Below are positions 24,980 to 29,643 of a stretch of DNA of 64,000 nucleotides, piece after piece. The stretch spans positions 64,001 to 128,000 of the forward strand of contig CBFIDD010000002.1 in the NCBI GenBank assembly GCA_965661285.1, read 5' to 3'. Under the pieces are notes generated by a model. The model ran no database searches, was not told the DNA's origin, and was given only the letters and a program-made list of their open reading frames with translations. The translations under genes and the position numbers were made by a program. Positions within the stretch are counted from its first letter, which is position 1, and each line of letters begins with the position of its first letter. Source of the stretch: Poseidonia sp. (GTDB lineage Archaea > Thermoplasmatota > Poseidoniia > Poseidoniales > Poseidoniaceae).

Positions 24980-25429
24980 TCAAGGTCGCCATGTGGCGAC
25001 AGATTTCGGTGTTTCTCGACAGTGCATGGCCACAAGGCGAAGACGGTTGCCATAGGTTGAGGAGATGTGCGGCGCCACTGCATCAAACGCCCATTTCGCA
25101 AGATTTTCTGCCGTCGGGATGAAGGTTACAATCACGGTTCTGTGCCCTTCGCCCATGCACATGCACGCTTTTTTCCCTTCTTCGTCGCCTTCGTAGATGA
25201 CGAACGCATGGTCAATGACATCGTGAACATGTTCCATCAACACCTTGCTGATATCAGAGAAATCCATCAACATCCCTTCGTCAGAAACACCAGAGACCTC
25301 AACCACGTCGCCTTCGATTTCTGCTTCAAACCTGTAACGATGTCCGTGAAGGTGCCTGCATTTTGACTTATGATTTGGCACCCTGTGGCCCGTGTCGGTC
25401 TCTACATAGCGTCGTATTGTGGTCGTCAA
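24980..25429 (-). CDS. queD: 6-carboxy-5,6,7,8-tetrahydropterin synthase
   Basis: GHRV..KCRHLHGHRY, GMLMDF, DHAF, PTAENLA, ETP. Confidence 0.93.
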   Translation of the reverse strand: MTTTIRRYVETDTGHRVPNHKSKCRHLHGHRYRFEAEIEGDVVEVSGVSDEGMLMDFSDISKVLMEHVHDVIDHAFVIYEGDEEGKKACMCMGEGHRTVIVTFIPTAENLAKWAFDAVAPHISSTYGNRLRLVAMHCRETPKSVATWRP

Positions 25430-26586
25430 TGTTCTTCCTCCTCGTCCAATTCAAACGAAAGTGAAGCGGAGTTGATGCAATAGCGCTCTCCGCCATAAGC
25501 TGCAGGGCCATCGTTGAACACGTGTCCAAGATGGGCATCACAAACACTGCACCTAACCTCAACACGAACCATCCCGTGCGTATAGTCGTCAATTCTGACA
25601 ATATTGGCTTCCCTATGTTCAGTATGGAACGATGGCCAACCGCACCCGGAATCAAATTTCATGGTCGAGGTGAACAAAAGCGTTGAACAGCATATACATC
25701 GATAATCTCCCGCTCGTTTCTCATTCCAATATTCGCCCGTAAATGCACGCTCTGTTCCCGATTGTCTCGTGACATGGTACTGAAGGTCAGTAAGGCGCTC
25801 TTTGTAATCCTCCTCTCGATGACGTCGTTGCGTTTCCAGGGCATCCTCAAGCACCTCGCGCCAGGGTTTGATGTAGTCAATGGGGTCCTGTCTTCCGATG
25901 GCGTGAAAGGCCAATATTCGTTCAACATCCGAGCCTGTACCACCGTGGGAACGCCCATCTGCATCTGGTGCATAGGAGGTAAGCGTCCTCGAAAAGACCT
26001 CATCGAAATCAAGACCTAGGGCGGCGATCGATGTTTCAGCATCTCGCAGAATACCGATTTTATCGCTCTCCAGATAGGGCAGGGTGAACGAAACGCGCTC
26101 ACTCTCCCAATTGCCGATGGCAAAAGCATGCTCCAGGGCCGTGTAAAATTCAGGGCGACAGTCGGGATAGATGGCGTGGTCGCCGCTGTGAACGCCGAGA
26201 ACAATTTCCGCCGTTGTATCGTGTTTGGTGGCCTGTGAGAGTGCAACGCCGTACAAAAGGGAGGAGAACAGGGCATTCCGGTTTGGCACAATGGTTGCTT
26301 TCATGTTCTCCTCTTCATAGTGTCCTTCTGGGACATCTTCGCCACCCTCAAGAAGATGGCTCTCAAACAGAGCAGTGGCCGACGAGAGGTCGGCAACGTG
26401 ATGATTGACATTAAACCCGTTTTCGGCCAAATAGGCCACCAGTGATGTTGCTCTTTCCAGTTCAATCGCGTGTTTTTGCCCGTAATTGAAGGAAATGGCG
26501 GTCACGGTGTAGTTTTCCCGTAGTAAGTGAAGAAGCAAGGAGGAAGAATCCATTCCCCCACTTAAGGCCATGACTGCGAGTTTCAT
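25426..26586 (-). CDS. queC: 7-cyano-7-deazaguanine synthase QueC fused to methionine-R-sulfoxide reductase MsrB
   Basis: N-terminal SGGMDS, FNYGQKH, VPNRN, HSGDHAIYPDCRPEF; C-terminal GTERAF, RCICC, KFDSGCGWPSF, RCSVCDAHLGHVFNDGP, RYCINSASL; one uninterrupted ORF. Confidence 0.93.
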   Translation of the reverse strand: MKLAVMALSGGMDSSSLLLHLLRENYTVTAISFNYGQKHAIELERATSLVAYLAENGFNVNHHVADLSSATALFESHLLEGGEDVPEGHYEEENMKATIVPNRNALFSSLLYGVALSQATKHDTTAEIVLGVHSGDHAIYPDCRPEFYTALEHAFAIGNWESERVSFTLPYLESDKIGILRDAETSIAALGLDFDEVFSRTLTSYAPDADGRSHGGTGSDVERILAFHAIGRQDPIDYIKPWREVLEDALETQRRHREEDYKERLTDLQYHVTRQSGTERAFTGEYWNEKRAGDYRCICCSTLLFTSTMKFDSGCGWPSFHTEHREANIVRIDDYTHGMVRVEVRCSVCDAHLGHVFNDGPAAYGGERYCINSASLSFELDEEEEH

Positions 26587-26598
26587 TGTATCATCTCC

Positions 26599-27258
26599 TT
26601 ACAGTATGCCCATCCATTTGTGGGTTTGTAATGACAATCGCCACGCCGGATTGTCCTTTACGACGGCCTCGGTAAGAGCAAAACCCCGCCCGTTTTCCTC
26701 TACTGTGGCTCCTTCATCGTAGCAGGGTTGAAGGAAAAGATGTGAAAAACCGTCCTTAAGGTCATCATACATTGAGAGCGATTGTCCAACATAAACGCAT
26801 TTGAGTTCGTCTCCCACACGTTGTTTAATTGAGACATTGGGGTACATCTGGTCTTTCGGTGAAATGCAAATCCAATCCAATAACCCATCGGGGATGGCTA
26901 CAGTACCGTTTGATTCCACTGAGAGATGGTAATTTTGCAGTTTCAGCATTCGAGCCAACGGCCAGAGGTCGTTGAGCATGGGCTCACCTCCCGTGAAAAT
27001 GATGTTTTTGCACGGGTACTCGTTCACCTTCTCCATGATCTGTTGAGCCGTCATGGCTTCGTATTCATCGAAATTGGTATCGCACCACTCGCAGCGTAGA
27101 TTGCATTTGCCAAACCGAATGAACACATGGGGTATGCCGCTTCGGAACCCTTCGCCTTGAACGGAATGAAAAATCTCGACGATATTGTAAACATAGGAAG
27201 GGTCGCTCTCCCGCACCTCAAGGCGGGGCCGCAGCACAACTTCACTCCTCTCCGGCAC
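26599..27258 (-). CDS. queE: 7-carboxy-7-deazaguanine synthase (radical SAM)
   Basis: EIFHSVQGEG, CNLRCEWCDT, TGGEP, ISPK, LQP, RLSLQTHK. Confidence 0.95.
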   Translation of the reverse strand: MPERSEVVLRPRLEVRESDPSYVYNIVEIFHSVQGEGFRSGIPHVFIRFGKCNLRCEWCDTNFDEYEAMTAQQIMEKVNEYPCKNIIFTGGEPMLNDLWPLARMLKLQNYHLSVESNGTVAIPDGLLDWICISPKDQMYPNVSIKQRVGDELKCVYVGQSLSMYDDLKDGFSHLFLQPCYDEGATVEENGRGFALTEAVVKDNPAWRLSLQTHKWMGIL

Positions 27259-27267
27259 GTTCTCACC

Positions 27268-27843
27268 TCAAAGGGGCGGTTGGTGAATCAATTGCATGAG
27301 CTCTTGTCGAGCTTCGGGGCGTTCAAAGAAGACACCGCGCATCGCAGATGTGGTCATAACAGCCTGTTGCTTTGCCACGCCGCGACATTGCATGCATCCG
27401 TGCGAAGCCTCGAGGATGACGGCTGCACCAAGGGGTTCCAGTTCGCGTTCGAGGTCGTCAGCGATGCCCTTCGTGATTCGTTCCTGATTTTGCAGTCGCC
27501 TGGCGTGCAATTCGAGGATTCGGGCCAATTTGCTAATGCCAACGATCCGCTCAACAGGTATGTAGGCAACGTGAGCGCGCCCTCGGAACGGCTGGAGATG
27601 GTGTTCGCAGGTTGAAGTGAATTCGATGTTGCGAAGCAAGACGATGCCATCATACCCCTCGCCGTTGAAGGTGGCTTGCAGAAGTTCACTGGCGTCCATG
27701 TCGTAGCCAGCGAATATCTCGCTCCACGACTCCACCACTCGCTTAGGGGTGTTTTTCAACCCTTCACGCTCGACATTGTCCGTGCCTTCGATGTAGCCCA
27801 ACAGCACGCGTACTGCCTCATGCGCTTCGTCTTCTGTTACCAT
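27268..27843 (-). CDS. folE: GTP cyclohydrolase I
   Basis: REGLKNTPKRV, STCEHHLQPF, GISKLAR, LQNQER, HGCMQCRG; start ATG 27843. Confidence 0.95.
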   Translation of the reverse strand: MVTEDEAHEAVRVLLGYIEGTDNVEREGLKNTPKRVVESWSEIFAGYDMDASELLQATFNGEGYDGIVLLRNIEFTSTCEHHLQPFRGRAHVAYIPVERIVGISKLARILELHARRLQNQERITKGIADDLERELEPLGAAVILEASHGCMQCRGVAKQQAVMTTSAMRGVFFERPEARQELMQLIHQPPL

Positions 27844-27844
27844 C

Positions 27845-28012
27845 TCAAATCCTCCTCCCGTGCATCTTGTCAATGGTGTCCAACTGGTCCAACAACTTTC
27901 GACACGCCGTTCGAATGGCATCTGCAAGACTGACAAACTTGTGGTCATCACCGACATGCAGTTTGAGGTCGTCGACCAATTCTTGTGGCATATCAAGTGA
28001 AACCTTGGGCAT
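27845..28012 (-). CDS. Ribbon-helix-helix (CopG/Arc/MetJ-fold) transcriptional regulator, 55 aa, absent from the ORF track
   Basis: Manual translation MPKVSLDMPQELVDDLKLHVGDDHKFVSLADAIRTACRKLLDQLDTIDKMHGRRI*; KVSLDMP beta-strand and S..DAIR helix; one nt separates its stop from the folE ATG. Confidence 0.85.
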   Translation of the reverse strand: MPKVSLDMPQELVDDLKLHVGDDHKFVSLADAIRTACRKLLDQLDTIDKMHGRRI

Positions 28013-28035
28013 GATGAGCGCTCACTGAGCATTGG

Positions 28036-28041
28036 ATATAA
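28036..28041 (-). promoter_or_regulatory. TATA box (TTATAT) of the RHH-folE-queE-queC::msrB-queD operon
   Basis: TTATAT lies 24-29 nt upstream of ATG 28012, consistent with a leaderless transcript. Confidence 0.55.
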
Positions 28042-28070
28042 GTATTCTTATAGTAATACTATAGGAATAC
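28042..28070. promoter_or_regulatory. 29-bp palindrome, putative operator of the RHH regulator
   Basis: GTATTCTTATAGTA-A-TACTATAGGAATAC: 14-bp arms with one mismatch, directly upstream of the TATA box. Confidence 0.7.
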
Positions 28071-28113
28071 CTCAGTCATTTTTCATGTGCTATGTTCACG
28101 GCATGGGCCAATG

Positions 28114-28118
28114 TTCAA
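28114..28118 (+). promoter_or_regulatory. TTCAA element at the TATA-box position of the aminotransferase gene
   Basis: TTCAA begins 30 nt upstream of ATG 28144. Confidence 0.5.
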
Positions 28119-28143
28119 AGGATACCTCGGCAGAAGGCGAACC

Positions 28144-29643
28144 ATGCAGACGGGAGTCACCAAGGACCATGTAGCCCTTCTTCACGAAATCCGTTCCAGT
28201 GTTGGGGACATCACCACACCCGGTCTCCACGACGAAGAGATTCGAGCCTTCCTCGCCCACGACCCCACGCTCGGTCAAGCCATTGACGAGGCATCGAAGC
28301 GCTTTCAAGCGATGGCGCAGGAATATCCCGACTTGTACTTGGATTCCAACGAATTGGAACTGATCACCAAACTCCAAGAAGGATTTGTCAATTTTTACAA
28401 CCCCGCAACGATCAATCCCTACATCGCCCTCGCGGCCCGAGGCCCATGGATCGTCTCCTCCCACGGCGCTGTTATCCACGACAACGGCGGCTACGGTATG
28501 TTGGGGGCCGGACACGGACCAACCGATGTTATTCGGTCCATGTCGGATAACTGGGTGATGGCCAATGTCATGACGGCCTCGTTTTCACAAAAGCGATTGG
28601 AAGAACGTCTTCGAGCCGAACTCGGCCACACACGCGGCTCGTGTCCTTTTGACAAGTTTATCTGCATGAACAGCGGTTCTGAATCGGTTACTGTAAGTCT
28701 GCGAATTGCTGACGTCAATGCGAAACTGATGACGCAGAAAGGCGGCAAACACGAAGGTAAGGACATCAAAATCATGGCTGTCGAGAAAGGTTTCCACGGC
28801 CGAACCGACCGTCCAGCACAAATGTCCCACTCCTGCAAAGGAAAGTATGACAAACACTTGGCGAGCTTCCAAAATCGGGACAACCTCATCCTTGTGCCCG
28901 CAAACGATGTTGAAGCGCTTCAACACGCGTTCACGCAGGCTGAACAGGACAACGTGTTCATTGAACTCCTCGCCATTGAACCCGTGCAAGGCGAAGGCAA
29001 TCCAGGCCAGTGCGTCTCCCGTGAATTTTACGATGCAGCCCGCCGTCTGACCTTGGAACATGACAGCATGCTTCTCGTCGATTCTATTCAAGCCGGTATT
29101 CGCGGCCAAGGCACGCTTTCTGTGGTTGACTACGCTGGGTTTCAGGATTGCGAGGCCCCAGATCTTGAGACATGGTCGAAAGCCATGAATGCAGGACAGT
29201 ATCCTCTCTCTGTGCTCGGGATGAACGAACGGGCATCGAACCTCTACGTCACGGGCATTTACGGAAACACGATGACGACAAACCCGCGAGCGCTTGAAAC
29301 GGCTGTTGCTGTTTTGGACGGCATCACACCTGAGTTGCGGCAAAATATACGAGACCGTGGCGAAGAGTTTGTTGAGAAATTCTCGGCACTCCAACAAGAA
29401 TTCCCTCATGTGATCACAAAAGTTCAGGGAACAGGATTACTCTGCAGCGCCGAACTGGAACCCACACAATTCCCTGTGGTCGGTATGGAGGCCGTAGAAC
29501 CCTGGTGCAGGCGGAGAGGCCTCGGTGTGATTCATGGAGGAGAAAATGCCCTTCGTTTCACGCCCCACTTCAACATCACATCCAAAGAGATCGACCTCCT
29601 TGTGGACATCGTCCGTGAGGCCATCATTGCATTTGGTGCCTAG
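28144..29643 (+). CDS. Class III PLP-dependent aminotransferase
   Basis: MNSGSES, GFHGRT, EPVQGEG, VDSIQAG, WSKAM (PLP lysine), GNTM, LRFTP. Confidence 0.9.
   Translation: MQTGVTKDHVALLHEIRSSVGDITTPGLHDEEIRAFLAHDPTLGQAIDEASKRFQAMAQEYPDLYLDSNELELITKLQEGFVNFYNPATINPYIALAARGPWIVSSHGAVIHDNGGYGMLGAGHGPTDVIRSMSDNWVMANVMTASFSQKRLEERLRAELGHTRGSCPFDKFICMNSGSESVTVSLRIADVNAKLMTQKGGKHEGKDIKIMAVEKGFHGRTDRPAQMSHSCKGKYDKHLASFQNRDNLILVPANDVEALQHAFTQAEQDNVFIELLAIEPVQGEGNPGQCVSREFYDAARRLTLEHDSMLLVDSIQAGIRGQGTLSVVDYAGFQDCEAPDLETWSKAMNAGQYPLSVLGMNERASNLYVTGIYGNTMTTNPRALETAVAVLDGITPELRQNIRDRGEEFVEKFSALQQEFPHVITKVQGTGLLCSAELEPTQFPVVGMEAVEPWCRRRGLGVIHGGENALRFTPHFNITSKEIDLLVDIVREAIIAFGA

Follow-up and report, generated by a model that had tools for sequence, protein, structure and literature searches.

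The que operon of Poseidonia sp. is headed by a small gene whose 55-residue ribbon-helix-helix (RHH) product is very probably a dedicated repressor of the preQ0 regulon, predicted to bind a set of phased GTAWTAC boxes beside the TATA box. We are similarly confident that a preQ0 regulon with an RHH protein of its own is real and previously undescribed. A full-text literature search, mostly without subscription papers and supplements, returned no described archaeal regulator of archaeosine-precursor synthesis, and the available part of the main text of a 2026 survey of QueC-family neighbourhoods contains neither 'regulator' nor 'CopG', while its supplementary table may list the gene (PMC13329287).

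A small gene at the head of the que operon

The RHH gene lies at 27845–28012 on the minus strand of the window (the whole stretch of 64,000 nucleotides that was analysed) and is recognised from its open reading frame, its relatives, its codon pattern and a structural model. It is followed on the same strand by folE (GTP cyclohydrolase I, 27268–27843, with its true start at 27843), queE (radical-SAM CDG synthase, 26599–27258), an in-frame queC::msrB fusion (25426–26586, with QueC at 4–227 and SelR/MsrB at 265–379) and queD (CPH4 synthase, 24980–25429); all four identities, that of the fusion included, are supported by Pfam and NCBIfam. The initial annotation had placed a 55-aa frame at this position, as the first gene of the operon and masked by a false extension of folE, and both points are borne out by the relatives. 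First, 57 of 61 Poseidoniales genomes (the host's own counted) contain the gene, each in one copy, and the family has matches in 67 of 301 genomes evenly drawn from the phylum, nearly all of them Poseidoniales. Second, folE-queE-queC lies directly behind the RHH gene in all 52 Poseidoniales loci, and the RHH gene is always first. Third, the frame contains no stop in any of the 52 relatives and has entropies of 0.53, 0.20 and 1.40 at codon positions 1, 2 and 3, the third positions varying most; on this alignment it has a coding pattern and the 55-aa frame is a real gene. Finally, the folE frame remains open across the RHH gene in only two of the 52 relatives, and the 63-aa N-terminal extension of folE (start 28032) is therefore considered spurious.

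The stop of the RHH frame lies 1 nt ahead of the folE ATG at 27843, and a Shine-Dalgarno-like sequence for folE, GGAGGAGG (27858–27851, minus strand), is located within the 3′ end of the RHH gene, through which the two genes are likely to be translationally coupled. The position of msrB is variable: of 20 Poseidoniales relatives, seven have it fused to queC and eight have it as a separate gene, in both cases ahead of queD, and five lack it.

A single tRNA-guanine transglycosylase is encoded in the host genome, and it belongs to the archaeal TgtA type, scoring 430.7 bits where the cut-off is 350. YhhQ, which transports preQ0 in E. coli and in some bacteria is reported to be governed by preQ1 riboswitches (PMC5372724), has zero matches in the host genome, which is 93% complete. 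Because the host has TgtA, the que operon most likely supplies preQ0 for archaeosine, feeding it through TgtA, and not for queuosine; in H. volcanii archaeosine is reported to be lost when queE or queC is deleted (PMC3017900). The host TgtA is 742 aa long against a 441-position model, and carries a PUA-like domain at its C-terminus along with a stretch that weakly resembles ArcS.

The RHH protein is predicted to consist of a ribbon (K3-V-S5-L-D7) and two helices (about 10–17 and 29–50), and its conserved parts include an HVG..K loop and a D..ID..HGR tail. Pfam RHH_1 misses the host protein when it is searched alone, and PF01402 (RHH_1) matches 16 of 35 aligned family members at E up to 0.1, the best at 3.5e-6. 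The AlphaFold2 model (pLDDT 89) is extended at residues 1–9 with helices at 10–17 and 29–50, which is the strand-then-two-helices layout of the RHH superfamily. A four-copy self-association model scores 0.69 (best control 0.00), with at least 91% of contacts agreeing between runs and partner pLDDT of at least 80; the mark used for such models is attained by 20 of 30 solved homodimers and by 1 of 23 single chains. The modelled interface includes residues 1–10, the N-terminal strands, with residue 8 facing residue 4 of the partner, and the confident interface in the four-copy model is solely within one dimer. The protein is thus predicted to be an intertwined homodimer with an antiparallel ribbon, and the self-association result may owe something to likeness to solved RHH dimers. 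The RHH identity originally given to the frame agrees with the RHH_1 matches of its relatives, with the modelled layout and with the predicted dimer; the RHH fold rests on profiles and models. A sequence search of solved structures gives PDB 2k9i (ORF56) as the sole match (E 0.093), and the ESM Atlas clusters are unnamed or CopG-labelled only. The protein is without a separate effector domain, as judged from its 55 aa and from the model. Cys37 is invariant in the 52 Poseidoniales loci and is not conserved beyond that order. Another RHH-containing protein of the host, about 138 aa long, resembles it in helix-loop pattern but differs in the ribbon (hhalign probability 56%).

Phased boxes beside the TATA box

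The predicted TATA box of the RHH gene, TTATATCC (28041–28034, minus strand), begins 29 nt before the start codon, and three related 7-mers lie upstream of it. Box 1 is at 28064–28070, box 2 (28053–28059) has the full consensus GTAWTAC, and box 3 (28042–28048, for which the consensus of the relatives is CGAATAC) is directly upstream of the TATA box on the minus strand, in the position of the BRE. The box starts at 28042, 28053 and 28064 give a period of 11 bp, the exact spacing that had been described before, and it is kept in the relatives: motif analysis of the leaders upstream of orthologues recovers three boxes from 52 anchored Poseidoniales loci, with the consensus GTAWTAC (R-GTAWTAC-Y) and variable 4-bp spacers. 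The 7-mer cores carry 1.6–2.0 bits across the relatives and the centres of the spacers 0.03–0.47 bits. Three boxes each score at least 3.9 in 45 of the 52 loci, which are the same loci that trained the matrix; among 13 held-out genomes, three boxes are found in ten and two strong adjacent boxes in the other three.

The initial annotation had centred on a 29-bp palindrome with 14-bp arms and one mismatch. It is present at 28042–28070 (arms 28042–28055 and 28057–28070) and is the sole inverted repeat of its quality in the 1.98-Mb host genome when searched with arms of 14, at most one mismatch and a gap of 0–1. As a conserved element it does not stand, however; the perfect long form is strain-specific and the relatives keep only the 7-mer cores. 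Because the spacers vary between relatives, the long palindrome is best seen as a local coincidence of spacers, and its interpretation as a hairpin or a single long site is rejected for the same reason. Judged from the leader alignments, the conserved unit is two to four GTAWTAC-like boxes at an 11-bp period. The box array scores 24.6 in the host genome and the next triple, which is inside coding sequence, scores 12.6; no intergenic double box is present elsewhere in the host genome, where the five other doubles are all inside ORFs. The array being unique, there is no sign of a wider regulon in the host.

The boxes lie 38 bp upstream of the predicted promoter of a divergent class-III aminotransferase gene (CCAATG-TTCAAAGG, 28108–28121, plus strand, outside the operator; ATG at 28144), which neighbours the RHH locus in most family-level relatives, and it could be supposed that the operator controls this gene instead of the que operon. 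We give this next to no credence, as the boxes persist where the neighbour differs (L026–L029, L049, L051 and L052) and are also found in all other archaeal lineages examined. The promoter-like stretch at 28108–28121 (plus strand) is almost invariant across the genus, and the DNA between it and the operator varies.

The placement of the boxes bears on the direction of control. The leaders of haloarchaea and methanogens have two to four boxes, mostly between a TATA-like element and the start codon, and repression is inferred because this is the placement from which the Sulfolobales RHH regulator aCcr1 is reported to repress (PMC9976878). A specific mechanism, blocking of the BRE, had been suggested earlier for the host, and the host geometry is in keeping with it, since box 3 touches the TATA box; elsewhere it does not apply in that form, as the boxes flank the TATA box or cover the start region. 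With TATA-anchored leaders numbering 23 of 1188 in the host genome, no genome-wide BRE consensus is derivable and the equation of box 3 with the BRE rests on position. It could alternatively be argued that in Poseidoniales the RHH protein is an activator, which would recruit TFB or TBP from a site immediately ahead of the promoter. The host boxes are indeed upstream of the TATA box, and for CdrS, a related RHH protein with a possible activating role, binding is reported at 41–110 nt ahead of start sites (PMC8406309). Nonetheless, we consider activation improbable: box 3 touches the TATA box and occupies the BRE position, the array is shifted by 10–22 nt towards the start codon in five of 20 Poseidoniales relatives such that the boxes flank or overlap the TATA position, and the haloarchaeal and methanogen boxes are mostly downstream of the TATA element, reaching up to the ATG.

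For repression, we propose that one RHH dimer would bind each palindromic 7-mer through the K3/S5/D7 ribbon, and that the three dimers would lie on one face of the helix and bind cooperatively. In the host the bound dimers would occlude the TFB/BRE site, and in haloarchaea and methanogens they would block the region between the TATA element and the start. Six haloarchaeal loci have a third box that takes in the start codon of the RHH gene (GT-ATG-CC) and keeps the phase of the first two.

The candidate regulator and the boxes in other archaea

A scan of GTDB genomes for relatives of the RHH protein gave 426 candidate stretches, and 80 loci were kept, from Halobacteria, Methanosarcinales, Methanothrix, Archaeoglobaceae, Nanohaloarchaea and Methanohalarchaeum. 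The family offers a candidate regulator with a defined operator, carried by most members of a marine order that is abundant and, among Halobacteriota, by 80 of 201 genomes (all matches at least 97 bits; 79 genomes with one copy). The holders include cultured Halorubrum, Natrinema, Methanosarcina and Methanococcoides, and whether and when archaea tune the archaeosine modification of tRNA becomes directly testable.

The 80 loci were split by hand, by titles and shared neighbours, into 46 non-Methanosarcinaceae and 34 Methanosarcinaceae-type loci. A preQ0 gene is directly behind the RHH gene in 25 of the 46 (yhhQ in 21, queD in two, queC in one and folE in one), and yhhQ or a que gene is somewhere in the locus for 35 of them. 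This verifies the statement in the initial annotation that similar small RHH genes lie beside queC in other archaea. There is no que or yhhQ gene within 4 kb of the RHH gene in any of the 34 Methanosarcinaceae-type loci, so that their link to the pathway rests on distant boxes only.

Several individual loci have unusual arrangements. One Halorubrum genome has the RHH gene in triplicate and yhhQ in duplicate, and in several Halorubrum loci yhhQ is divergent from queD-queE-queC with the RHH gene downstream; this may represent a mobile preQ0 module. Two RHH-yhhQ-queC clusters with boxes are found in Nanohaloarchaea, and in one of them queC is followed by a gene with an MrcB-like N-terminal domain, which may point to modification of DNA rather than tRNA. 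A contig titled Saprospiraceae bacterium carries an RHH gene with Methanococcoides-type neighbours and is likely to be mis-binned.

The association of boxes with que genes was scored with a matrix trained on Poseidoniales alone, que leaders being scored for two boxes 11 bp apart. A double box is present in 14 of 20 que-operon leaders for which the RHH gene is outside the fetched locus (a count that leaves out L154 and L155, which are second queC matches) versus 3 of 419 control leaders; the other six leaders are below the double-box threshold. When other periods are applied to the same 20 leaders, there are none at 9, 10, 12 or 13 bp, four at 8 and one at 14. The RHH gene is a few kb from the que genes in some Halorubrum and more than 0.7 Mb from the que leader in Natrinema, Methanococcoides and two Methanosarcina chromosomes. 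In a blind Halobacteriota set, with genomes picked by RHH status alone, boxes are present in all 14 que leaders where the RHH gene is adjacent and heads the operon, in 10 of 14 where it is outside the locus (four miss the threshold, and L249, whose leader is beyond the locus, is left out), and in one of 29 where no RHH gene was found. Among Thermoplasmatota with QueC and without the RHH gene, boxes are found in none of 30 leaders (the best 30 of 67 QueC matches). The boxes thus track the RHH family, with 24 of 28 leaders in its presence versus 1 of 59 in its absence (the blind set and the best 30 of 67 Thermoplasmatota matches), although the genomes are related and these counts are neither independent trials nor probabilities. 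The sole RHH-negative positive comes from a fragmented assembly, in which three boxes precede queC, and the absence of the RHH gene there is probably an assembly gap. Only one of ten stand-alone yhhQ leaders is at the double-box threshold.

This tracking also bears on whether the small gene is a mere neighbour of the boxes, these being sites for a global RHH protein of the CdrS or aCcr1 kind or plain promoter elements. Such an explanation is very unlikely even though the box is nearly equal to that of aCcr1, the CdrS motif is called similar in the available part of the same account (PMC9976878), and the host genome has two further RHH_1 matches. Along with the tracking, there is no second intergenic double box in the host genome, a box directly before the TATA box is seen in none of the 23 other anchored leaders (a small control), and of the 18 ChIP sites reported for CdrS in H. 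volcanii none is at HVO_1716 or HVO_1717 (PMC8406309; PMC3017900).

In Methanosarcinaceae the stand-alone RHH leader is without phased boxes and the distant queC leader has them. Because the boxes sit at the distant queC and none at the RHH gene itself, the comparison supports a role for the RHH protein as regulator of a regulon and not only as an autorepressor. The autorepression of deazaguanine synthesis proposed at the outset consequently survives in its link to the pathway and to repression, for which the comparative tests argue, and not as autoregulation only. A Methanosarcina queC leader has five in-phase boxes, 110–160 bp upstream of the gene.

A possible signal, and comparison with known systems

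Repression could follow the supply of preQ0, either by direct binding or via a partner, a part of the proposal that is weaker than the rest and that we put at somewhat short of an even chance. No QueC match is found in 10 of 30 RHH-bearing genomes, and the five of these that were checked all have TgtA and an RHH gene directly before yhhQ, with a PTPS-family gene in three. A signal linked to preQ0 is suggested because the RHH gene is kept both in synthesis-only genomes such as the host and in genomes with yhhQ and TgtA where QueC was not found; what both kinds of genome share is preQ0 and a TgtA that uses it, an argument for preQ0 rather than for a metal or the pterin intermediates. Among these three classes of ligand, preQ0 gives the best fit to the gene context, pterin and metal fitting less well. 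A role in metal homeostasis is disfavoured, as the host genome offers no other target and several members have Arg in place of His51. As phased boxes are lacking in Methanosarcinaceae RHH leaders, the protein is likely to respond to something besides its own concentration. The loop H19-V-G21..K25 and the tail residues D45, D48, G52 and R53, which are outside the ribbon, are candidate surfaces for sensing or for dimer–dimer contact.

A serious rival, itself tentative, has the same protein acting on the same boxes with no pathway metabolite, giving constant expression by negative autoregulation or following some general condition of the cell, for instance its growth rate, temperature or redox state; it differs from our explanation in the signal only. 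The absence of an effector domain suits it, and msrB in the operon (15 of 20 Poseidoniales) together with the invariant Cys37 (52 of 52) hints at redox. Cys37 is not conserved beyond Poseidoniales, however, and the targets found are only genes for preQ0 synthesis or uptake. Moreover, phased boxes at distant queC leaders and not at the RHH leader in Methanosarcinaceae mean that autoregulation alone cannot be the point of the protein. The fuller explanation that we put forward, also tentatively and as something less than probable, is that the RHH protein, lacking a sensor domain, uses its HVG..K loop and D..ID..HGR tail to bind preQ0, or to read tRNA archaeosine status via a partner, and turns off both synthesis and uptake in Poseidoniales, haloarchaea and Methanosarcinales as an archaeal protein counterpart of the preQ1 riboswitch.

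Arc, CopG, MetJ and NikR are RHH proteins whose dimers bind phased subsites cooperatively and occlude promoters, and MetJ uses a product of its pathway as co-repressor. The RHH family described here differs from all four in ribbon, box and pathway. NikR models match weakly, with the host protein aligning to roughly positions 1–57 of a 141-position profile, and the C-terminal metal-binding domain of NikR is absent from the 55-aa protein. By analogy, the RHH protein appears to work like a repressor of the Arc/CopG/aCcr1 type and yet to belong to a separate family.

Two archaeal regulators are closer. CdrS (HVO_0582; NF058555) is, as reported, likewise a small euryarchaeal RHH protein with a symmetric motif, and is the best NCBIfam match, but its gene adjoins ftsZ2, it is essential and acts globally, and its binding sites precede promoters (PMC8406309); que genes are missing from its reported ChIP targets (PMC8406309). 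The CdrS model, with a cut-off of 100, gives 16.4 bits for the host protein and 25.7–36 for four relatives, and the ftsZ2 synteny is absent, the next gene being folE in 52 of 52 loci and elsewhere yhhQ, a que gene or none of these. aCcr1 (SiRe_0197 / SiL_0190 / SIRV2 gp21; NF053762) is also a small stand-alone RHH protein and is reported to bind AGTATTA by EMSA, within a 9-bp palindromic aCcr1 box (PMC9976878, PMC9976892); this sequence is nearly equal to the RHH-family consensus R-GTAWTAC-Y (PMC9976892). Its overexpression reportedly lowered SiRe_0018/0019, annotated as queuine/archaeosine tRNA-ribosyltransferase genes (PMC9976878, PMC9976892). As described, aCcr1 is a cell-cycle regulator of Sulfolobales that has numerous targets, each promoter bearing one or two boxes, in contrast to the two to four boxes at a fixed 11-bp period and the preQ0-gene targets of the RHH family. 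The aCcr1 model (cut-off 60) gives no match for the host protein and 16.8–25.5 bits for three relatives. The likeness suggests that a box of the cell-cycle type is apparently used here for a metabolic regulon.

Finally, preQ1 riboswitches are reported to have the same targets, namely genes for preQ0/preQ1 synthesis and the YhhQ transporter (PMC5372724). They are RNA sensors, whereas RHH control appears to be exerted by a DNA-binding protein, and Rfam elements including the preQ1 riboswitch have no match at E up to 1 in seven loci. The RHH protein is likely to be a dedicated off-switch, made of protein, for a pathway that in bacteria is under RNA switches and, should the binding of preQ0 prove true, a minimal protein sensor for 7-deazaguanines.
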